A stretch of 60,371 nucleotides of DNA, the filler included. It is 5 parts of 5 records of this genome, joined end to end, with 100 filler letters (N's around TTAATTAATTAA, not from the genome) between each part and the next. Parts side by side here need not be neighbours in the genome. Positions count along the whole stretch, not along the records: positions 16,573 to 46,175 come from DRR723986_5043; 4 more parts are not named here. One strand, given 5' to 3'. The notes under the pieces are model-generated. The model had not been told where the DNA came from and searched no databases. It worked only from the letters and a program-made list of their open reading frames with translations. A program made the position numbers and the translations under genes. This document shows, one piece after another, positions 4,765 to 42,461 of this stretch (positions within the stretch are counted from its first letter, which is position 1; each line of letters opens with the position of its first letter).

Positions 4765-5948
4765 GCCAACAACTGAAGGTTCCCGCCACCTACATGCGTG
4801 GCGGTACCAGCAAGGGTGTGTTTTTCAGGTTGCAGGATTTGCCTGACGCATGCCAAAAGCCGGGCGAAGCACGCGACAAACTTTTGTTGCGTGTAATCGG
4901 AAGTCCTGACCCTTATGGCAAGCAAATCGACGGCATGGGTGGTGCTACATCAAGCACCAGCAAAACCGTGATTTTGAGCAAAAGCAGCAAGGCTGATCAC
5001 GATGTAGATTACCTGTTTGGACAGGTTTCAATCGACAAGGCCTTTGTGGACTGGAGTGGCAACTGCGGCAATTTGTCTTCTGCGGTGGGTTCATTCGCAG
5101 TGGCCAGTGGCTTGGTTGATCCTGCACGCGTGCCACAAAACGGCACTTGTGTGGTACGCATTTGGCAAGCCAATATTGGCAAAACCATTATTGCGCATGT
5201 GCCAATGACCAACGGGCTTGTTCAAGAAACCGGCGAATTTGAATTGGATGGGGTTACTTTCCCCGCGGCTGAAGTTCAGCTGGAGTTCTTGGACCCGGCC
5301 GATGAAGGCGAAGACGGTGCTTCAGGCTCTATGTTCCCCACTGGCAACCTGATTGACGACCTGGAAGTTCCCGGCATCGGCACACTGAAAGCCACGCTGA
5401 TCAATGCCGGCATACCCACCATTTTCGTCAATGCGGACAGCATTGGCTACACCGGCTGCGAGCTGCAAGACGACATCAACAGTGACCCCAAGGCATTGGC
5501 GATGTTCGAAACCATCCGCGCCCACGGTGCCGTGAAAATGGGCTTGATCAAACATATTGATGAAGCAGCCAAACGACAGCACACACCCAAAGTGGCGTTT
5601 GTTGCACCGCCAAAAACCTACACCAGCTCAAGCGGCAAGGTGGTTGAATCGGCAGGCATTGATTTGCTGGTGCGCGCCATGAGTATGGGCAAACTGCACC
5701 ATGCCATGATGGGTACAGCCGCAGTGGCCATTGGCACAGCAGCTGCCGTACCTGGAACCCTGGTGAATTTGGCAGCGGGTGGAACCGCACGAGAAGCCGT
5801 TCGCTTTGGACACCCAAGCGGCACCTTGCGCGTTGGGGCCCAAGCGGTGCTTGAAAATGGTCAATGGGCCGTCAAAAAAGCCATTATGAGCCGCAGTGCG
5901 CGCGTATTGATGGAAGGTTGGGTTCGCATACCTAACGATACGTTTTAA
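4761..5948 (+). CDS. prpF: 2-methylaconitate cis-trans isomerase PrpF
   Basis: YMRGGTSKG, SGNCGNL, SMGKLHHAMMGT, RSARVLMEG; ATGA overlap with acnD. Confidence 0.96.
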   Translation: MSQQLKVPATYMRGGTSKGVFFRLQDLPDACQKPGEARDKLLLRVIGSPDPYGKQIDGMGGATSSTSKTVILSKSSKADHDVDYLFGQVSIDKAFVDWSGNCGNLSSAVGSFAVASGLVDPARVPQNGTCVVRIWQANIGKTIIAHVPMTNGLVQETGEFELDGVTFPAAEVQLEFLDPADEGEDGASGSMFPTGNLIDDLEVPGIGTLKATLINAGIPTIFVNADSIGYTGCELQDDINSDPKALAMFETIRAHGAVKMGLIKHIDEAAKRQHTPKVAFVAPPKTYTSSSGKVVESAGIDLLVRAMSMGKLHHAMMGTAAVAIGTAAAVPGTLVNLAAGGTAREAVRFGHPSGTLRVGAQAVLENGQWAVKKAIMSRSARVLMEGWVRIPNDTF

Positions 5949-25388: not shown

Positions 25389-25901
25389 TTAGAACGGGAT
25401 TTCATCATCCAAGTCACTAGAACCGCCTGCTGGCGCACCGCCGCCAAAGCCTCCGCCCTGTTGACCACTACCCTGCTGTCCTGCACCTTGAGCCTGGCCG
25501 CCACCATAGCTGGACTGATTATCACTAAAGCCACCGCCAGCGCCGTCATTGCGGCTATCTAGCATCGTCAATTCGCCGCGAAAGCGCTGCAGAACCACCT
25601 CAGTGGAATATTTCTCAACGCCTGATTGATCAGTCCATTTACGGGTTTGAAGCTGGCCTTCCACATACACTTTGGAGCCCTTCTTCAAATAATTTTGCGC
25701 AACCTTGGCCAAGTTTTCGTTGAAAATTACTACCCGGTGCCATTCGGTTTTGTCCCGCCTTTCACCAGTATTTTTGTCGCGCCAGTTTTCCGACGTTGCA
25801 ACTGACAGGTTCACCACAGGATTACCGTCTTGCATGGTACGCACTTCAGGGTCACGGCCCAGATTACCAACCAAAATTACTTTATTTACACTACCAGCCA
25901 T
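25389..25901 (-). CDS. ssb: single-stranded DNA-binding protein
   Basis: [19 protein letters not shown], Gly-rich tail, C-terminal DDEIPF; start at 25901. Confidence 0.98.
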
Positions 25902-26023
25902 CAGGGCCCCCTTATTGAAACATTTCGAGGGTTCAGCATACAGCAAACTGTATAGCCGCCTCTTTACCGCTGGGACCATAAACCACAAATGCCCACGCTT
26001 GCAAAAGGTAATTGGGGAATTTT

Positions 26024-26038
26024 GTTCTATTTTTGTTC
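26024..26038. promoter_or_regulatory. alphaproteobacterial LexA (SOS) box upstream of ssb
   Basis: GTTC-TATTTTT-GTTC (GTTC-N7-GTTC). Confidence 0.85.
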
Positions 26039-26184
26039 TTTTTTGCTTTTGAATATATTTATTCTTCAATTCGCCGCCATTTTCAGGCACTTCACCGCGC
26101 TGGTATAGCCAAATTAAAACAAACCGTTAGGCTAATTTTGGGACTTTCAGTTGTATAAATACTGAATGAAATAAGGGAAGAGCG

Positions 26185-27635: not shown

Positions 27636-27650
27636 GTTCTTTATTTGTTC
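27636..27650. promoter_or_regulatory. LexA (SOS) box upstream of uvrA
   Basis: GTTC-TTTATTT-GTTC. Confidence 0.85.
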
Positions 27651-27751: not shown

Positions 27752-30610
27752 ATGCTTACAAAAATTTCAGTGCGCGGCGCGCGCGAGCATAACCTCAAAT
27801 CGGTTAATGTAGATATCCCGCGCGACAAGCTGGTTGTGATCACCGGCCTATCCGGCTCCGGCAAGTCATCGCTTGCCTTTGACACCATCTATGCGGAAGG
27901 CCAGCGGCGCTACGTGGAAAGCCTGAGTGCGTATGCCCGGCAGTTTCTGGAAATGATGCAAAAGCCTGATGTTGACCATATTGAAGGCCTGTCGCCTGCT
28001 ATTTCCATCGAACAAAAAACCACCAGCAAAAACCCGCGCTCCACCGTTGGCACCGTAACTGAAATATATGATTACATGCGCCTATTGTGGGCAAGGGTCG
28101 GCGTTCCCTACTCGCCTGCCACCGGCCTGCCCATCGAAAGCCAGACGGTAAGCCAGATGGTTGACCGCATTATGATGCTGGAAGAAGGCGCAAGAATATA
28201 CCTTCTCGCGCCTATTGTGAGGGGTCGCAAGGGTGAATACCGTAAGGAATTCGGCGAGCTCCAGAAACGTGGCTTTCAGCGCGTAAAAGTAGACGGCGAG
28301 TTTTACCTGATTGAGGACGTGCCGATGCTGGATAAGAAATACAAGCACGACATTGATGTTGTTGTTGACCGGTTGGTCGTGAAAAGTGGGCTGGAACAAC
28401 GACTAGCAGACAGTGTGGAAACTGCGCTGGACCTTACTGATGGCCTTGTGGCTTACGAGCTGGCATCCAAAGGCGAAACCGATCAGGAACGCCACCTGAT
28501 GTCGGCAAAGTTCGCCTGCCCTGTTTCTGGCTTCATCATTGAAGAAATTGAGCCGCGTCTATTTTCCTTCAACAACCCCTTTGGGGCCTGCCCGGAATGC
28601 GATGGACTTGGCAACAAACTATACTTTGACCCTGACCTTGCCGTGCCAGACAAAAGCAAAACCGTGCGCGCAGGCGCGCTAGCCCCCTGGGCAAGTCGCG
28701 CCAATAACCCTTCGCCGTTTTATTTTCAGGCGCTAGAGGCTGTTGCCAATCATTTTGGTGTGTCGCTGGACAACCCCTGGAACGATTTGCCTGAAAAAGT
28801 GCAGAATGCCTTTCTTTTTGGCACCGGGAAAAAGGACGTGACCATTGTTTACGCTGATGGCAAGCGTAAATTTGAAGTGAACAAACCCTTTGAAGGTGTT
28901 TTGAACAACATTGAACGCCGCTGGCGCGAAACCGACAGCAACTGGATGCGGGACGAACTGTCAAAATATCAGTCGTCCACAACTTGCACCACGTGTGCTG
29001 GTGCGCGCTTGAAACCAGAAGCCTTAGCGGTAAAAATTGATGCCACGCACATAAGTGACGTTACAGCCATGTCGGTATCAGCCGCGCATGAATGGTTTAC
29101 AACCCTGCCCGAGCGCTTAACCGAAAAACAGCAACAAATTGCTGAGAAAGTGCTGAAAGAAATTCAAGACCGCCTTGGGTTCCTGAACAACGTAGGTTTG
29201 CAATATCTTACGCTAAGCCGTTCTTCGGGCACATTGTCAGGCGGTGAAAGTCAGCGCATTCGGTTGGCGTCACAGATAGGCTCCGGCCTTACAGGCGTGC
29301 TGTATGTGTTAGATGAGCCATCGATTGGTTTGCACCAGCGCGATAATGACCGCTTGCTGGAAACGCTTAAGAACCTGCGCGATATAGGCAACACTGTGTT
29401 GGTAGTGGAACATGACGAAGACGCCATTCGTACCGCCGACTATGTTATTGATATGGGCCCCGGTGCCGGTGAGCACGGCGGCATGGTTGTCGCTGAAGGA
29501 AAGCCCGAGAAAGTAATGCGCAACCCTAAAAGCCTAACCGGGCAATATATGACTGGTAAACGCTCTGTGCCTACGCCAGAGGCCCGCAGGCCCGGAAAAG
29601 GTACGTTCCTTACTGTCAAGGGTGCTACAGCCAACAATCTGCGCGGTATTGACGGTAGCATACCGCTAGGCACACTCACCTGCATTACAGGCGTATCGGG
29701 GTCTGGCAAGTCCACTTTCACCATTGAAACGCTTTATAAAGCAGTTGCCAAGCATTTGAACAAAAACCGCATGATGCCGGGGCCGCATACGTCAATCGAA
29801 GGGCTTGAGCATCTGGACAAAATTGTCGATATCGACCAAAGCCCCATTGGCCGCACGCCGCGGTCTAACCCCGCTACCTACACCGACGCCTTTACGCCAA
29901 TACGTGATTGGTTTGCTGGCCTACCCGAGGCACAGGCACGTGGCTACAAGCCTGGGCGCTTTTCTTTCAATGTGAAAGGTGGGCGGTGTGAAGCTTGCCG
30001 CGGTGATGGCATGATCAAAATTGAGATGCATTTCCTACCGGATGTGTATGTGCAATGTGACCAGTGCAAGGGTAAACGCTATAATAGAGAAACATTAGAA
30101 ATATTATTTAAAAACAAATCTATATCTGATGTTCTTGATATGACAGTTGAAGATGGATGCGCCTTTTTCAAGGCTGTTCCTGCTATTCGAAATAAGCTTG
30201 AGATGCTAGAGAAAGTAGGGCTTGGTTACATACGTGTTGGCCAACAGGCTACAACCCTTTCCGGCGGTGAGGCACAGCGGGTAAAGCTCGCCAAAGAACT
30301 ATCTAAACGCTCCACCGGGAAAACCTTATATATTCTCGACGAACCCACCACCGGCCTGCACTTTGAGGACATTCGTAAATTGATGGAAGTGCTACAGGCC
30401 TTGGTTGACCAAGGCAATACAGTTGTTGTGATCGAGCATAACCTGGAAGTGATTAAAACCGCTGACTGGATATTAGACCTTGGGCCCGAGGGCGGTGACG
30501 GCGGCGGTGAGATTGTGGCTATCGGCACACCAGAAGATGTAGCCAAGTCAGCTAAAAGCTATACAGGCCAATATCTTGCCCCAGTTCTAGCGCGGCAGGC
30601 AGCTGAGTAA
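27752..30610 (+). CDS. uvrA: excinuclease ABC subunit A
   Basis: Two Walker A ([16 protein letters not shown]), LSGGE signatures, zinc fingers. Confidence 0.99.
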
Positions 30611-35569: not shown

Positions 35570-36895
35570 CTAGGTTTTTTCGATAATGGCAACAAAAAAG
35601 CCGTCAGTCTGGTGCTGGTGCGGGACGAATTGCAGCATAGCTTCATTTTTGGCAGCAGTTTGTGGTGCCTCAGACGGCAAAACCTTACCCCAAATCGATT
35701 TGTAATTAACCAGCTTCCAATCAGCTGTACCATGTGCGGCAAAAAACGCATCAACAACAGCTTCATTTTCTTCATACAGAATTGAGCAGGTCATATAGAC
35801 CAATCTACCGCCAGCCGACACCATTTGGGCCGCTTCGGCCAATAATGCTAGCTGAAAGCCAGCATAATCTGTGATTTGCTTGCTAGATAGACGCCAGCGT
35901 TGATCAGGGTTGCGCCGCCAGGTGCCTGTGCCTGAGCACGGTGCATCAACAACAACCCTGTCAGCCTTGCCTGTGAAGCCCGCCAGAATGCGATCTCTGT
36001 TCGACCCTTGTTCTGGAATAGCCTTAACCTGAATGTTGCGGCAACCTGACCGCTGAGATCTTGCGGTAAGCGCTGACAACCTCTTGCCAGAAGCGTCAAA
36101 GGCGAACAACTGGCCTTTGTTTTCCATTAGGGCGGACAAAAGTAGGCTTTTGCCTCCTGCGCCAGCACAGAGGTCTACGACAGCCATGCCAGGCTCTGCG
36201 TCCACCAAATAACAAGCCGCCTGTGCGGCTTCGTCCTGAACCTCTATTTTACCAGACGTATACAGATCAGTCCCCGTTATGCGCACTTTACTATTTGATC
36301 TATATCCAACTGGAGAAAGCTTTGATTTTTCAATATCTTCTGATATTTTTTGAAGGTTACTACTTAGGGTGCCATCAGACTTTAAAGGATTGCTTCTCAT
36401 ATCCAGCGGCGCTGTTCCGTTCAGGCTCGCAATAGCCGCCTCAAAGGTAACACCGAACCGCTCGCGGAGGGCCGGTTCCAAAAACTCCGGTACCTCATGC
36501 GCTGCTGAAATAGGCTTTTGGTTAGCCTCTTCAAAGACAGTGAATTGATTAACCGCCTGCTGTTCTGCATCAGACATTTTTTCGGGACTGTGGGCCGTCT
36601 CATCCCCAAACATGGTGAGGTCTTCTGGGGCGTTTTTAACCAAATAGCTTATGAGCAAAGAACGACCAGATACAGGTAGCCCAACACCGTTCAATCGCCA
36701 AACATGATAGCCTCTACGCCGAATAACATCGTAGGAAAGGGCTGAAATCGCTCTGCGGTCCTTGGACCCGATATACCGCCGATTACGGGAATAATCAGCA
36801 ACAACGCGGTCAGCCGGCGCCGTTAGCGTGCGTATCCCCTCCTCAACACCGTCAAGGATTTCAATAACCGCTTGAAGGCGAGCCGCTGGGCGCAT
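35570..36895 (-). CDS. RsmB/NOP-family RNA m5C methyltransferase
   Basis: EVQDEA, DLCAGAGGK, VDAPCSGTG, YMTCS, TDGFF. Confidence 0.92.
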   Translation of the reverse strand: MRPAARLQAVIEILDGVEEGIRTLTAPADRVVADYSRNRRYIGSKDRRAISALSYDVIRRRGYHVWRLNGVGLPVSGRSLLISYLVKNAPEDLTMFGDETAHSPEKMSDAEQQAVNQFTVFEEANQKPISAAHEVPEFLEPALRERFGVTFEAAIASLNGTAPLDMRSNPLKSDGTLSSNLQKISEDIEKSKLSPVGYRSNSKVRITGTDLYTSGKIEVQDEAAQAACYLVDAEPGMAVVDLCAGAGGKSLLLSALMENKGQLFAFDASGKRLSALTARSQRSGCRNIQVKAIPEQGSNRDRILAGFTGKADRVVVDAPCSGTGTWRRNPDQRWRLSSKQITDYAGFQLALLAEAAQMVSAGGRLVYMTCSILYEENEAVVDAFFAAHGTADWKLVNYKSIWGKVLPSEAPQTAAKNEAMLQFVPHQHQTDGFFVAIIEKT

Positions 36896-38610: not shown

Positions 38611-39306
38611 CTATTGCCCCTTAAAGCCTTGGGCAAGAACAAACCATTCTTTCGAATCAGCCCGGCTGGCAGGCGGTTTTGCATGTTTAACCGACTTAAA
38701 ATGCTGCTGCATTCTGGTCATCAGCTCAGTGTCACTGCCACCCTGCAAAACTTTAGCGACAAATGTGCCGCCTTCGCCCAAGACCTTAATCGCAAAGTCA
38801 AGCGCCGCCTCACACAGCGCCATTGTGCGCATCTGATCAGTTTGACGGTGTCCTGTAGCAGAATTAGCCATATCCGATACAACAAGGTCAACGGGGCCAT
38901 TAAGCGCAGCCATAAGCCGGTCTTCGGCGTCCACATCAAGGAAATCCATCACCCATATTTCTGCGCCAGGAAGTGGCTCCACTTCTTGCAGATCAATACC
39001 GATAATTTGTGCACTGCTTGGCAATTTTTTGGTTAAAATTTGTATCCAACCACCCGGTGCACAGCCAAGGTCTACAACACGCTGTGACCCTTTGATAAAA
39101 TCATACCTGTCATCTAGCTCTAAAAGCTTAAAGGCGGCACGCGTCCGGTAGCCCAAACGATTAGCCTCGGCCACATAGGGGTCATTCAACTGTCGTTGAA
39201 GCCAACGTGTTGATGAGGGCTTTCGGCCTCGCGCCGACTTCACCCGCACCTTAGCGCCGCGTGCACGGCTTTTTGTTTGCGACTGCCTGTTCCACCCTTT
39301 TGACAT
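38611..39306 (-). CDS. rlmE: 23S rRNA Um2552 methyltransferase
   Basis: YRTRAAFKL, DLGCAPGGW, SDMA, KPPASRADSKE; TAATG overlap with ppx. Confidence 0.95.
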   Translation of the reverse strand: MSKGWNRQSQTKSRARGAKVRVKSARGRKPSSTRWLQRQLNDPYVAEANRLGYRTRAAFKLLELDDRYDFIKGSQRVVDLGCAPGGWIQILTKKLPSSAQIIGIDLQEVEPLPGAEIWVMDFLDVDAEDRLMAALNGPVDLVVSDMANSATGHRQTDQMRTMALCEAALDFAIKVLGEGGTFVAKVLQGGSDTELMTRMQQHFKSVKHAKPPASRADSKEWFVLAQGFKGQ

Positions 39307-40676
39307 TATTCTGTTTGCCCTTTTTGAGCTGCATCTGTTGACGACTTGCCCAATTCCGGTTGGCGAATCACTGCACTGTTTATATGCAGAGGTGGCTCAT
39401 CAATTTGCATTAGACCACGCAAAATACCTTCTCGAATGCCACGATCAGCAACCCGCAGGCTTGGCACCGGCCACATATCCAGAATGGCTTCCAATATAGC
39501 ACAGCCCGCAACCACCAAGTCTGCCCGCTCGTCACCAATACAAGGCTCAGCCGCTCGCTGCTGTGGGGTCATTTCCGCTACTTTGCGCGACAAGGCACTG
39601 ATGTCTTTTGACTTCATCCATGCGCCATCAACTTTATCGCGGATATAACGCGGCAATCCCAAGTGCAAACTGGCAAGTGTTGTAACGGTGCCTGATGTGC
39701 CTAAAAACTGCGTGTCAGGGCCACCAAACACAGCGCTTAATGCGTGTGCATCTTCAAAAGCTTGTAATTGGTGCGAGATCGTTGCGACCATATCTTTGTA
39801 ACGCTGTGCATATACAGCGGCAGGGTCGGCTTTAGAAGCACTAGTAGAGTCACTCGTAAATTTCTCTGTTAAATTAACCACACCCCAAGGTACCGACATC
39901 CAACCATGTATTTCATTAGCGCGGTTCTTATGGCACTTAACCCAAATTAGCTCGGTGCTGCCGCCACCGATGTCGAACACCAGAACATTCTTCATTTCTG
40001 GCGCAATCAAAGATTGGCAACCCAGCACAGCAAGACGTGCTTCCTCACCAGCAGAAATGACATCCAGGTTAATGCCTGTCTCGCGCTTAACACGCGCTAC
40101 AAATTCTTCAGAGTTATCAGCAATACGGCAGGCTTCCGTTGCAACATGGCGCATGCAATTTACGTTGCGCCGCGCAAGTTTCTCTGCGCAGACTTTCAAC
40201 GCGTCTATGGTTCTATCCATGGCATCGTCAGACAAACGGTTGTCTTGGCCTATGCCCTCGCCTAGGCGAACAATGCGTGAGAATGCATCAATAACCCTGA
40301 AACCGTTTCTAGATTGTTTAGCGATTAACAGGCGGCAATTATTGGTGCCTAGATCTATTGCGCTATAGATTGCACTTCTGCGCGATGACGCACGATGCCG
40401 TCCGGTATTTTGCTTTCGCCCCTTACTGCGCGCATCGCCGCGTCGTTGAGAATTTTTTCTTGTGTTGTTTAGCGCCTGATCGCCAGGATTGGTAGCCGCG
40501 TTATGAAGGTCGGCCTGCTCGGTGTTTTGCACTTCGGGGTCTGAACGCTTTTTCGCTCGGTTTGGCTTGCGCCTTCTACCAGACCGTTTCCGTCCGGGCT
40601 TTTCCGATACTTTGGCCTTATCTGGCCCTTCGCGTCGACCACCTGCACCGCTATCGGCGCTGATGTCGAGGGACAT
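39306..40676 (-). CDS. ppx: Ppx/GppA exopolyphosphatase with basic N-terminal extension
   Basis: AIDLGTNNCRL, ATEACR, DIGGGSTE, DRGIREG. Confidence 0.9.
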   Translation of the reverse strand: MSLDISADSGAGGRREGPDKAKVSEKPGRKRSGRRRKPNRAKKRSDPEVQNTEQADLHNAATNPGDQALNNTRKNSQRRGDARSKGRKQNTGRHRASSRRSAIYSAIDLGTNNCRLLIAKQSRNGFRVIDAFSRIVRLGEGIGQDNRLSDDAMDRTIDALKVCAEKLARRNVNCMRHVATEACRIADNSEEFVARVKRETGINLDVISAGEEARLAVLGCQSLIAPEMKNVLVFDIGGGSTELIWVKCHKNRANEIHGWMSVPWGVVNLTEKFTSDSTSASKADPAAVYAQRYKDMVATISHQLQAFEDAHALSAVFGGPDTQFLGTSGTVTTLASLHLGLPRYIRDKVDGAWMKSKDISALSRKVAEMTPQQRAAEPCIGDERADLVVAGCAILEAILDMWPVPSLRVADRGIREGILRGLMQIDEPPLHINSAVIRQPELGKSSTDAAQKGQTE

Positions 40677-40814: not shown

Positions 40815-40870
40815 GTTCTTATTTTGTTCTTGACACTTGCCGTCACCACGAATAAGAACAAAGAAAGAAC
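40815..40870 (+). promoter_or_regulatory. sigma70-type promoter bracketed by two LexA boxes
   Basis: GTTC-TTATTTT-GTTC (40815-40829), TTGACA (40830-40835), 17-nt spacer, TAAGAA (40853-40858), GAAC-AAAGAAA-GAAC (40856-40870). Confidence 0.8.
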
Positions 40871-40884
40871 ATTGGAGCAAGAAA

Positions 40885-41109
40885 ATGAGCATAAGCCATA
40901 TAGTTATACTAGGTATTTTCATCGTGTTAGGTAGCGCGGGGCTAGCTATGATGCAGTCTGCGTTAAGCACAGCGTGGAAGGCAACTGGCCTTACTTTGAC
41001 CCGTAATGGTCAAAAGCATCGCTCAATGAAGTACTCTCAGACAAGCCCGGTGGCCGCAAATTATTCTTTGGCTAAAGCAAACTTGAAAATAAGCCGACCT
41101 CTTCTCTAA
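40885..41109 (+). CDS. small basic protein with one N-terminal hydrophobic segment, putatively SOS-induced (74 aa)
   Basis: SD GGAG at 40874-40877, ATG 40885; MSISHIVILGIFIVLGSAGLAMM then Lys/Arg-rich tail. Confidence 0.65.
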   Translation: MSISHIVILGIFIVLGSAGLAMMQSALSTAWKATGLTLTRNGQKHRSMKYSQTSPVAANYSLAKANLKISRPLL

Positions 41110-41250
41110 ACATCAAATAGCCTGAGCATAATTTAGTCCGGGCATAATTGAGAATGCCTATTTAAGATAGATTAGCTGCACAATACCTCACAAGCTAGTT
41201 TATGGGTGTTGTTCCTTTATTAAGAAAAAATAGTAGGCAGCTTATCGTGT

Positions 41251-41400
41251 AAAAAATAAGGCGCGGTGTACTGCCTTTGAAAGCAAAAACACCGCGCCTA
41301 TTCCGAGCGAAACCCCCAGGTGAGGCCCGGTATCAGTGTAACGAGCGGCTGCAACATAGTGCGCCAAATATCTGGTATCACCTCCCCAAGCTAACCAGTA
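41251..41400 (-). ncRNA. candidate structured sRNA ending in an intrinsic terminator (5' end uncertain)
   Basis: 11-bp stem 41259-41269/41289-41299 with U6 tail on minus strand; internal GGGGAGGUGAU able to pair with downstream UCACCU. Confidence 0.4.
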
Positions 41401-41609
41401 TAAGCCCGTTTCAACTGATGGAAAGCTATCGAACTGGATTCACTGCTTCGAGTCAAGTTTCGTTCACAAATTTTTAACAATCAAATTCACAGCAACCTAG
41501 GACTGTGACTTTTATGTTTCGAATTTATTTCAGTAGTACAAAATACTTCAACGAAAGTTGAAAAAAACGCATCAATATTTCTCACATTCAGCGCCTACTC
41601 AACCTACTA

Positions 41610-42461
41610 TTAACCAATGGGTTCGCCTTGATACTCTGAAACTCGGCAATATTGGTCCGCGCTCACACGTTTAATTCGGGTGCAAAGCGCGTCAGCTTCT
41701 TGTTCATTAATGAATGGCCCTGCAACTAGGCGCATAAATGTGCCGATACCTTCTTGGCTCTGTACATATAATAACGGCGTTAATCCTTGCAAATCGCCCG
41801 CATATGTTTGTGCCAAATTACTCCAACCGCTGTTAACTTGGTCTTTACTTCTAAACGACGCTAGGTGAACGCCAAAGAAAGCTTCTTCGCTACGTTTCAC
41901 ATTGCTAACCGGCGTCGCATCAGATGCGTTAGCACCCTCTTCAGGGTCAACAGCAGCGGCTTTCTCAGCACGGCCTGTCGGTGCTTTTGTATTCGCAGCA
42001 AATGCTGGCGCTCCATTGTCCGTCATTTCAACGGAAAACAATCGGTTTTCCAGTTTCTTCAATTGATCGCGAATAACAGAGACATCGTTCCGCACGCGGC
42101 CAACCGACGCTTCTAGTTTTGGGTCCTGTTTTATCGTGGATACTTTTTCATTAATTTCTGAAAGCACCATTTCCTGAGAACGAACGTGTTGAACAAGTTC
42201 AACATACAAACGCTCAAGCGCATTAAAACGATCTCGCAGTGCCCGATGATCTTCAGAAACGAACCCAACATCATTCTCTAGTGCTTGTTGCCTTGCTTCT
42301 ACAAGCACGTCTTCACCTTGCCAAAGGTTTTGACTGGCACAGGCTGGCAACAAAAACATTAGTGCTGCCGCCGCGCCTATCCGTGCATTTTTTGCCCCAA
42401 TATTTCTTGAGTACCCAAATGTATGTACCATTTTGCCGACCTCCAAATGTGGATAAACCAT
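41610..42461 (-). CDS. SPOR-domain lipoprotein with coiled coil
   Basis: Lipobox-like LLPAC; C-terminal GVHLASFRS...RLVAGPF...ALC; start uncertain. Confidence 0.8.
   Translation of the reverse strand: MVYPHLEVGKMVHTFGYSRNIGAKNARIGAAAALMFLLPACASQNLWQGEDVLVEARQQALENDVGFVSEDHRALRDRFNALERLYVELVQHVRSQEMVLSEINEKVSTIKQDPKLEASVGRVRNDVSVIRDQLKKLENRLFSVEMTDNGAPAFAANTKAPTGRAEKAAAVDPEEGANASDATPVSNVKRSEEAFFGVHLASFRSKDQVNSGWSNLAQTYAGDLQGLTPLLYVQSQEGIGTFMRLVAGPFINEQEADALCTRIKRVSADQYCRVSEYQGEPIG

Follow-up and report, generated by a model that had tools for sequence, protein, structure and literature searches.

What kind of protein is encoded behind the two LexA boxes at positions 40815–41109 of the window, the 60,371-base stretch of DNA analyzed here? 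The boxes bracket a promoter that faces away from the divergent ppx-rlmE operon and toward an open reading frame (ORF) of 74 amino acids. An earlier note had described this promoter, its boxes, a Shine-Dalgarno sequence, and an ORF with eight Lys/Arg residues, no Asp/Glu, and one N-terminal hydrophobic segment. We found every element in its place, with the start of the ORF exact, and translation reproduced the composition and the hydrophobic segment. We consider it well supported, and highly probable, that the gene is real, that it encodes a membrane protein, and that it is under double LexA control. As for its function, we favor an SOS-induced division inhibitor that would resemble SidA of Caulobacter crescentus in its action, a reading drawn from analogy to which we give a probability of about 0.5.

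Two LexA boxes around one promoter

The coordinates of all features are given in Table 1. Box 2 has the opposite orientation to box 1 and spans the -10 hexamer plus the likely transcription start. Judging from the position of the -10 hexamer, the transcript is predicted to start near 40865 and to have a 5' untranslated region (UTR) of ~20 nucleotides (nt). The exact pattern GTTC-N7-GTTC occurs seven times in the window compared with 1.68 expected, and none of 100 shuffles (0/100) reached seven. The observed anatomy is far beyond chance. Four of the seven boxes have T-rich spacers, namely the two at the small ORF, one 5' of ssb (26024), and one 5' of uvrA (27636). The remaining matches at 5274, 35999, and 57128 have G+C-rich spacers, and the one at 35999 is inside an ORF (35570–36895). 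These three are probably chance matches, in line with the 1.68 expected. Allowing one mismatch in the pattern gives 52 matches in the window compared with 42.6 expected, and this looser search is thus uninformative.

GTTC-N7-GTTC is described as the alphaproteobacterial SOS box in two sources (preprint 10.1101/2025.01.26.634973; PMC9578287). The same had been claimed for this locus, and the claim was borne out, as the single lexA gene carries GAACTAAAAGAGAAC a few bases 3' of TTGAC in all five related whole genomes (G001–G005). This would be the expected autoregulatory site. The orientation and position of box 2 agree with the box at lexA. The motif had also been said to precede ssb and uvrA on this contig, and both genes were confirmed by Pfam. 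Using a stricter box, TGTTC-N7-GTTCT, we found 13 sites in genome G001 and six for a reversed control. Two of the strict boxes (L041–L053) are at the small gene. The strict boxes also adjoin ssb, a Y-family polymerase, an S24 peptidase, a radical-SAM gene, ribonucleotide reductase, a C5 DNA methylase, a cytidylate kinase, and ORFs without a Pfam family. These neighbors appear to outline the local SOS regulon. The sequence evidence identifies the GTTC-N7-GTTC boxes at the small ORF as LexA operators of the Kordiimonadales lineage described below, to which LexA would be predicted to bind.

A conserved gene and protein of the Kordiimonadales

We used the neighboring Ppx/GppA protein to collect 35 loci from public genomes. 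The 16 best ppx loci (L001–L016), with best-segment identities of 56–76%, are from Kordiimonas, Eilatimonas, Kordiimonadaceae, or Kordiimonadales, including two labeled Alphaproteobacteria only and one labeled Sphingomonadales. The other 19 loci (38–45% identity) are from Hyphomonas, Henriciella, and unclassified metagenome-assembled genomes. This pattern assigns the window to a Kordiimonadales-type marine alphaproteobacterium. A tBLASTn search for a conserved ORF plus boxes had been suggested as a check in the earlier note, and both were found across the Kordiimonadales loci. In 14 of these loci, tblastn and scripts identified a small ORF that shares the N-terminus and is divergent from ppx; in the remaining two of the 16 (L011 and L015), the ORF that follows the boxes has diverged further. 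The diverged L015 ORF is 34 amino acids long; it was excluded from alignments and counted among the box carriers. Boxes are present in all 16 loci. Box 2 is perfect in 16/16 and box 1 in 15/16, the exception being a single mismatch in L014 (GTTC..GTGC). No box was found near ppx in any of the 19 loci outside the Kordiimonadales.

Of 121 genomes in an order-level sample around G001, 24 gave strong matches (E ≤ 2.4e-7) in a six-frame profile search, and in each of these, both boxes are perfect and flank a TTGA-type -35. The profile also marked four weaker places, of which L091 has both boxes and L092 has one. The weak matches L093 and L094 have no boxes and were taken as false for that reason. 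In a class-level sample of 401 genomes, the only strong match was G001 itself, with three more matches at E values of 0.001–0.004. The small protein was found only in Kordiimonas, Eilatimonas, and relatives.

The codons of the ORF show that the protein is what has been kept. When 16 sequences were compared pairwise over their first 32 codons, codon positions 1, 2, and 3 showed 0.50, 0.34, and 0.70 differences per site, respectively. For the closest pair, the window and L001, the nonsynonymous rate (dN) is 0.107 and the synonymous rate (dS) is 1.27. Since positions 1 and 2 vary less than position 3 and dN is below dS, the ORF is under purifying selection as a protein.

The promoter is conserved along with the ORF. 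After removing duplicates, we compared 33 distinct orthologous promoters, listed in 34 rows because L013/L075 also appears in a reverse reading. Across the 33, the -35 is retained together with both boxes. The consensus of box 1, aTGTTCtntTTTTGTTCTT, is directly continuous with the -35, and that of box 2, aAGAACAnaaaAaGAACa, starts within the -10. The -35 reads TTGACN in 28 of the 34 rows, TTTACA in three, and TTGAT/TTTAT in three, one of these being a reverse-strand reading. The equivalent of the -10 in the orthologues is TA(A/G/T)(A/G)A(A/G), just before GAAC. The box centers are separated by 40 base pairs (bp) in six rows, 41 in 15, 42 in two, 43 in nine, and 45 in two. The mode is 41 bp, and the range of 40–45 bp is about four helical turns. 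Between box 2 and the start codon, a purine-rich stretch of the GGAG, GGAGG, or AAGG type is present in 17/17 further orthologues.

We also searched for the two-box pattern itself (GTTC-N7-GTTC, 15–40 nt, GAAC-N7-GAAC), using the reversed pattern as a control. It occurs once per genome in all five related genomes (3.6–4.4 megabases), each time at the small-ORF promoter, and the control gave zero matches. Such spacing would place two LexA dimers on the same face of the DNA, with the RNA polymerase site between them, and suggests that the small-ORF promoter may be the most tightly repressed of the regulon. Preprint 10.1101/2025.01.26.634973 gives ~97% as the share of Caulobacter SOS promoters with a single box.

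The protein belongs to no described family, as the absence of recognized homology in the earlier note had implied. Pfam has no family for the window protein. A match to Cytochrome b561 in NCBIfam (E value 0.009; 15.8 bits compared with a cut-off of 170) was rejected as noise. A word-indexed protein search returned one relative, an exhaustive HMMER search of 1.84 billion representatives returned four proteins, and a profile search returned nine, each annotated as "hypothetical protein" wherever named. The orthologue in a cultured relative, Kordiimonas aquimaris JCM 16665, is WP_262695358.1 and has this annotation as well. Scans of 39 members against PHROGs and Pfam showed no family matched by more than three of the 39, with a best Pfam E value of 0.022. 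We saw no fused form among longer proteins, which is weak evidence. A feature-based protein atlas returned unnamed clusters of small proteins, one with CNNM in 52% of its members, and gave no lead. None of Pfam, NCBIfam, and PHROGs has a family for it, and no relatives were found outside the clade.

An alignment of the 39 family members (A7) shows proteins of 53–77 residues with tails of 20–45 residues. F12, G16, and Q24 are invariant, G19 is present in 38/39 members and H5 in 34/39, and conservation is low beyond about residue 34. AlphaFold2, run with the family alignment, gives one helix spanning residues 3–34, with a predicted local distance difference test (pLDDT) score above 90 over residues 1–30, and a disordered tail. 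A single, strongly hydrophobic stretch of 19 residues, starting at residues 1–6, is present in each of the 39 members; in the window protein, it begins at residue 5. The helix has no charged residues in its transmembrane part. There are no Lys/Arg residues before the hydrophobic segment in the 39 members, compared with 254 Lys/Arg and 72 Asp/Glu after it, and the C-terminal flank is net positive in 39/39. By the positive-inside rule, a positively charged flank lies on the cytoplasmic side, so these charges predict an N-terminus out, C-terminus in arrangement. The protein would then have ~5 periplasmic residues, one transmembrane helix, and a basic cytoplasmic tail.

Conservation along the helix is periodic. 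Over residues 3–31, the periodicity peaks at 95–100 degrees per residue, a value reached by 66 of 5000 shuffles. H5, L9, F12, G16, L/M20, M23, L27, and V30 fall on one helix face, with G19 beside the face and Q24 at its boundary. A conserved face with small residues indicates that the helix packs specifically against another helix in the membrane, be it that of a partner or of a second copy of the protein.

A convergent small RNA beyond the ORF

A structured small RNA (sRNA) gene of ~170–185 nt, which the earlier note had missed, lies on the opposite strand past the end of the ORF. The region 41249–41527 is 73–84% identical over 230–283 nt in five related loci and partly conserved in nine more, and the sRNA region is better conserved than the tail of the protein. 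Sequence variants produce G-U pairs when read on the minus strand but A-C mismatches when read on the plus strand, indicating that the RNA is encoded on the minus strand. An alignment of 17 sRNA sequences has 38 pairs, 10 of them with compensatory changes, and one stem displays the invariant loop CUUGGGGAGGUGA. The z score of the minus-strand fold is -3.76. Rfam matched the window only with suhB/mmgR (19 bits; gathering score 41) and S15-leader (19.5 bits; gathering score 39.5), both below gathering, and had no match in eight related loci. ARAGORN found no transfer RNA or transfer-messenger RNA.

Using a covariance model, we found the sRNA as a single copy in 24 of the 121 order-sample genomes, which are exactly those with the small protein, and it adjoins the small ORF on the opposite strand in 24/24. 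Among 150 class-sample genomes, it was found in G001 only. In the seven loci where the ORF was correctly placed, the sRNA is 79–167 nt past its stop codon. No LexA box with one mismatch or fewer is near the sRNA promoter, and there is no canonical plus-strand terminator between the small ORF and the sRNA. By these searches, the sRNA appears to be previously undescribed and to occur in no other clade than the small gene does, and it may be functionally linked to the small ORF.

We compared the sRNA with the messenger RNA (mRNA) of the small ORF, taken up to the shared hairpin. Complementarity was no better than in shuffles, and the longest Watson-Crick runs were 6–9 nt, at non-homologous positions. 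At least 15 of 40 shuffles did equally well in seven of eight species, and 5/40 did so in the eighth (L007). Duplex energies were also no better than those of shuffles. The loop CUUGGGGAGGUGA is purine-rich and resembles the mRNA's own ribosome-binding site. It would presumably be complementary to the 3' end of 16S ribosomal RNA (rRNA).

Just beyond the sRNA (41610–42461, minus strand) is a gene for a 283-amino-acid protein with a lipoprotein-like N-terminus and a C-terminal SPOR domain. SPOR domains bind septal peptidoglycan, which marks this neighbor as a division-associated gene.

Table 1. Features of the locus and of its neighbors, in window coordinates
Feature	Position	Strand	Remarks
LexA box 1, GTTCTTATTTTGTTC	40815..40829	+	GTTC 40815-40818 and GTTC 40826-40829; immediately 5' of the -35
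-35 hexamer TTGACA	40830..40835	+	Read from the sequence
Promoter spacer, 17 nt	40836-40852	+	Between TTGACA and TAAGAA
-10 hexamer TAAGAA	40853..40858	+	Assigned by consensus; last three bases shared with box 2
LexA box 2	40856..40870	-	Plus strand GAACAAAGAAAGAAC; GAAC 40856-40859 and GAAC 40867-40870; GTTC-N7-GTTC on minus strand
Shine-Dalgarno GGAG	40874..40877	+	7 nt 5' of the ATG
ORF, 74 amino acids	40885..41109	+	ATG at 40885, stop ends at 41109; single-pass membrane protein
Structured sRNA gene, ~170-185 nt	41248..41430	-	Convergent with the small ORF; terminator hairpin 41260-41300 plus U run
Candidate sRNA -35 TTGACT	41456-41451	-	TTGAC part (41456-41452) conserved
Ppx/GppA protein	39306-40676	-	Pfam
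Candidate ppx promoter	40756-40728	-	TTGGCA 40756-40751, 17 nt, TGnTAATAG with -10 at 40733-40728; read from the sequence
ssb	ORF 25392-26090	-	SSB domain by Pfam; box at 26024 upstream
uvrA	ORF 27752-30610		Identified by Pfam; box at 27636 upstream

Division inhibitor, toxin, or another membrane effector

In an undamaged cell, two LexA dimers would shut the near-consensus sigma-70 promoter of the small ORF very tightly. RecA-stimulated cleavage of LexA would free the promoter, and promoter strength, the ~20-nt leader, and the good Shine-Dalgarno sequence would together give a rapid burst of protein. If the protein is a division inhibitor, its conserved helix face (H5, L9, F12, G16, G19, and M23, with Q24 at the boundary) would then most likely pack against a membrane protein of the division machinery and block constriction until repair is complete. 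In function, this would be the action of SidA and DidA on FtsW/FtsI/FtsN, with no apparent sequence relationship to either. We infer LexA binding, induction by damage, topology, and the division target from the features described above. Pfam detected SulA (PF03846) in none of the five related genomes (0/5), with a positive E. coli control, leaving this niche vacant. The window protein itself has no PF03846 match. In PMC4211646, SidA is a 29-amino-acid LexA-controlled inner-membrane inhibitor that binds FtsW, DidA is a 71-amino-acid single-pass protein, and both keep FtsW/FtsI/FtsN inactive. A Caulobacter lexA deletion filaments unless sidA is also deleted, according to preprint 10.1101/2025.01.26.634973.

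Several points weigh against a division inhibitor. No homology was detected between the family and any characterized division inhibitor, so that its role is read by analogy; whether as checkpoint protein or as toxin, the models are SidA, DidA, YneA, and TisB. The predicted topology would leave almost nothing in the periplasm, unlike YneA and SosA, and the cytoplasmic tail is poorly conserved. A conserved convergent sRNA in 24/24 genomes is a layout typical of type I toxin-antitoxin loci, not of sidA. All family members come from one clade, and the co-conservation of ORF, boxes, and synteny therein represents few independent events. Furthermore, the two-box pattern was present in 7/401 genomes of the class sample compared with 8/401 for the reversed control. 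Since it is no commoner than the control, any general link between paired boxes and small membrane peptides depends on two loci outside the clade. Outside the clade, the pattern occurs in six genomes, and one of these matches is lexA itself. In G115 (L097:1550–1645) and G387 (L098:1582–1683), A+T-rich inverted boxes directly precede tiny hydrophobic ORFs of 32 and 34 amino acids. The L097 ORF is present in the protein collection, unnamed, and a family scan of the two peptides matched no families. They are possible SidA-type peptides, and in this respect they fit a division inhibitor.

Among the closest parallels to the small gene is sidA. Both are alphaproteobacterial SOS genes behind GTTC-N7-GTTC boxes with a strong, early-type promoter, and both encode small inner-membrane proteins with a single transmembrane helix, which is also their informative part. 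However, SidA is 29 residues long and nearly all transmembrane, whereas the family here has 53–77 residues with a long basic tail. The promoter here has two operators where the single box is the rule in Caulobacter, and the gene has a convergent sRNA partner. A search with the family profile through 400 other genomes sampled from the Alphaproteobacteria yielded no relative, and SidA itself was compared by description. DidA of C. crescentus, which acts on FtsN/FtsW/FtsI, is similar in being 71 residues long with a single helix and short flanks (PMC4211646). Unlike the small gene, didA is SOS-independent and DriD-activated, and the family profile detected no homology to DidA.

YneA of Bacillus subtilis and SosA of Staphylococcus aureus are also LexA-controlled, with an N-terminal transmembrane helix and a length of ~60–100 residues. 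Their genes adjoin lexA, and their active part is extracellular. In contrast, lexA (C1:2111106) and the small gene (C1:1883694) are ~227 kilobases apart in G001, the charges of the family predict a cytoplasmic tail, and Pfam found no LysM or other domain. According to PMC13396833 and PMC6851548, YneA acts on FtsW.

The strongest challenge to a division inhibitor comes from the sRNA. The protein could be an SOS-induced type I toxin in the style of TisB/IstR-1 or DinQ/AgrB of Escherichia coli, which would oligomerize in the inner membrane and dissipate the proton-motive force, leading to growth arrest or persistence. The convergent and apparently LexA-independent sRNA would be the antitoxin, acting by antisense overlap with the 3' end of a read-through mRNA or by transcriptional interference. 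Both E. coli systems consist of a LexA-repressed small hydrophobic peptide and an adjacent sRNA gene without a LexA box, and a constitutive sRNA beside a LexA-repressed membrane peptide is their shared logic. The locus here also pairs a LexA-boxed small hydrophobic ORF with a box-free sRNA. This reading is strengthened by the sRNA's strict, single-copy, opposite-strand association with the protein-bearing genomes and its absence from all others in both samples, and it is further helped by the missing box at the sRNA promoter and the missing terminator between the two genes. A double operator would suit a product that is dangerous when leaky, and the small-residue motif G16-x-x-G19 could drive self-association.

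The details of the locus fit a toxin less well, and we consider this reading unlikely. The sRNA is convergent here, not overlapping or divergent as in the E. coli pairs, and it has no complementarity to the mRNA above shuffled controls. Its purine-rich loop CUUGGGGAGGUGA cannot pair with a purine-rich ribosome-binding site. Classical type I toxin mRNAs have translation-blocking leaders; the small-ORF mRNA has no structured leader, and its predicted 5' UTR of only ~20 nt would leave the Shine-Dalgarno sequence exposed. The transmembrane helix is uncharged and offers no charge with which a pore could be lined. Type I loci tend to be patchy and multi-copy, whereas this is a single-copy core gene with fixed synteny across the whole clade. 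The protein is also two to three times longer than the E. coli peptides, has no Pfam match, and occupies a fixed core position. No homology to a toxin family was found by Pfam, either for the window protein or shared across the 39 members. Finally, the co-occurrence of sRNA and protein within one clade is a single evolutionary event and proves little.

It is also improbable, in our view, that the SOS-induced membrane protein has some other role, for example as a modulator of a transporter, a respiratory complex, a membrane protease, or an envelope-stress sensor. In a variant of this idea, the protein would serve as a membrane anchor, its basic tail recruiting a cytoplasmic factor. In either version, it would be neither a division inhibitor nor toxic. 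The conserved helix face implies a partner without naming one, and the atlas search yielded only unnamed small proteins, both of which leave room for such a role. Many LexA-regulated genes of Caulobacter have yet to be assigned a function, according to PMC13384398. However, a double operator that is unique in the genome, placed on what looks like the strongest promoter of the regulon, suits a product that must not be present during normal growth. The tail varies too much to be a specific recruitment site, and there is no co-transcribed partner gene.

A more speculative possibility, which we regard as quite doubtful, joins the two genes into a new, clade-restricted type of damage switch. Here, the double-LexA-clamped membrane protein would be opposed by a constitutive convergent sRNA whose loop CUUGGGGAGGUGA mimics a Shine-Dalgarno sequence and pairs with the 3' end of 16S rRNA, with mutual antagonism by convergent transcription or 3' overlap. 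If this were true, the sRNA would set how much damage it takes for the membrane effector to appear, and an RNA that acts on ribosomes would in turn be switched off once the effector gene is induced.

The boxes are contained in the 209-nt intergenic region between ppx and the ORF, and the earlier note had raised the alternative that they affect ppx-rlmE. That they act mainly on this divergent operon, with the small ORF incidental, is very improbable, as the bracketed TTGACA/TAAGAA pair points toward the small ORF and not ppx, a conserved candidate promoter of its own serves ppx ~58 nt away from box 1, the gap between the small ORF and the ppx match ranges from 191 to 552 nt while the box-to-ORF geometry is fixed, boxes are absent near ppx outside the clade, and the ORF is under purifying selection. 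From this layout, direct LexA control of ppx-rlmE appears unlikely. The TTGCCAATG block of the candidate ppx promoter is kept in five of seven aligned intergenic regions. Separately, we observed that a GCTCACTT block in the ppx leader is invariant in 7/7 aligned loci.

With the small protein, an already known kind of SOS effector would gain a new and apparently unrelated family. Among the papers returned by our searches on Kordiimonas LexA and on alphaproteobacterial SOS small membrane proteins, none describes this gene. SOS-induced division inhibitors and membrane toxins arose repeatedly from unrelated small proteins, and, to our knowledge, almost none is known in the Alphaproteobacteria outside Caulobacter. 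The family provides a candidate effector for a whole marine lineage that is backed by comparative genomics, and it names H5, F12, G16, G19, and Q24 as residues to target by mutation. Its rare and strictly conserved two-operator promoter could reveal how very tight repression is achieved with the asymmetric alphaproteobacterial LexA box. If the target is FtsW, FtsI, or FtsN, the protein would add a third independent way of acting on one and the same step of division.

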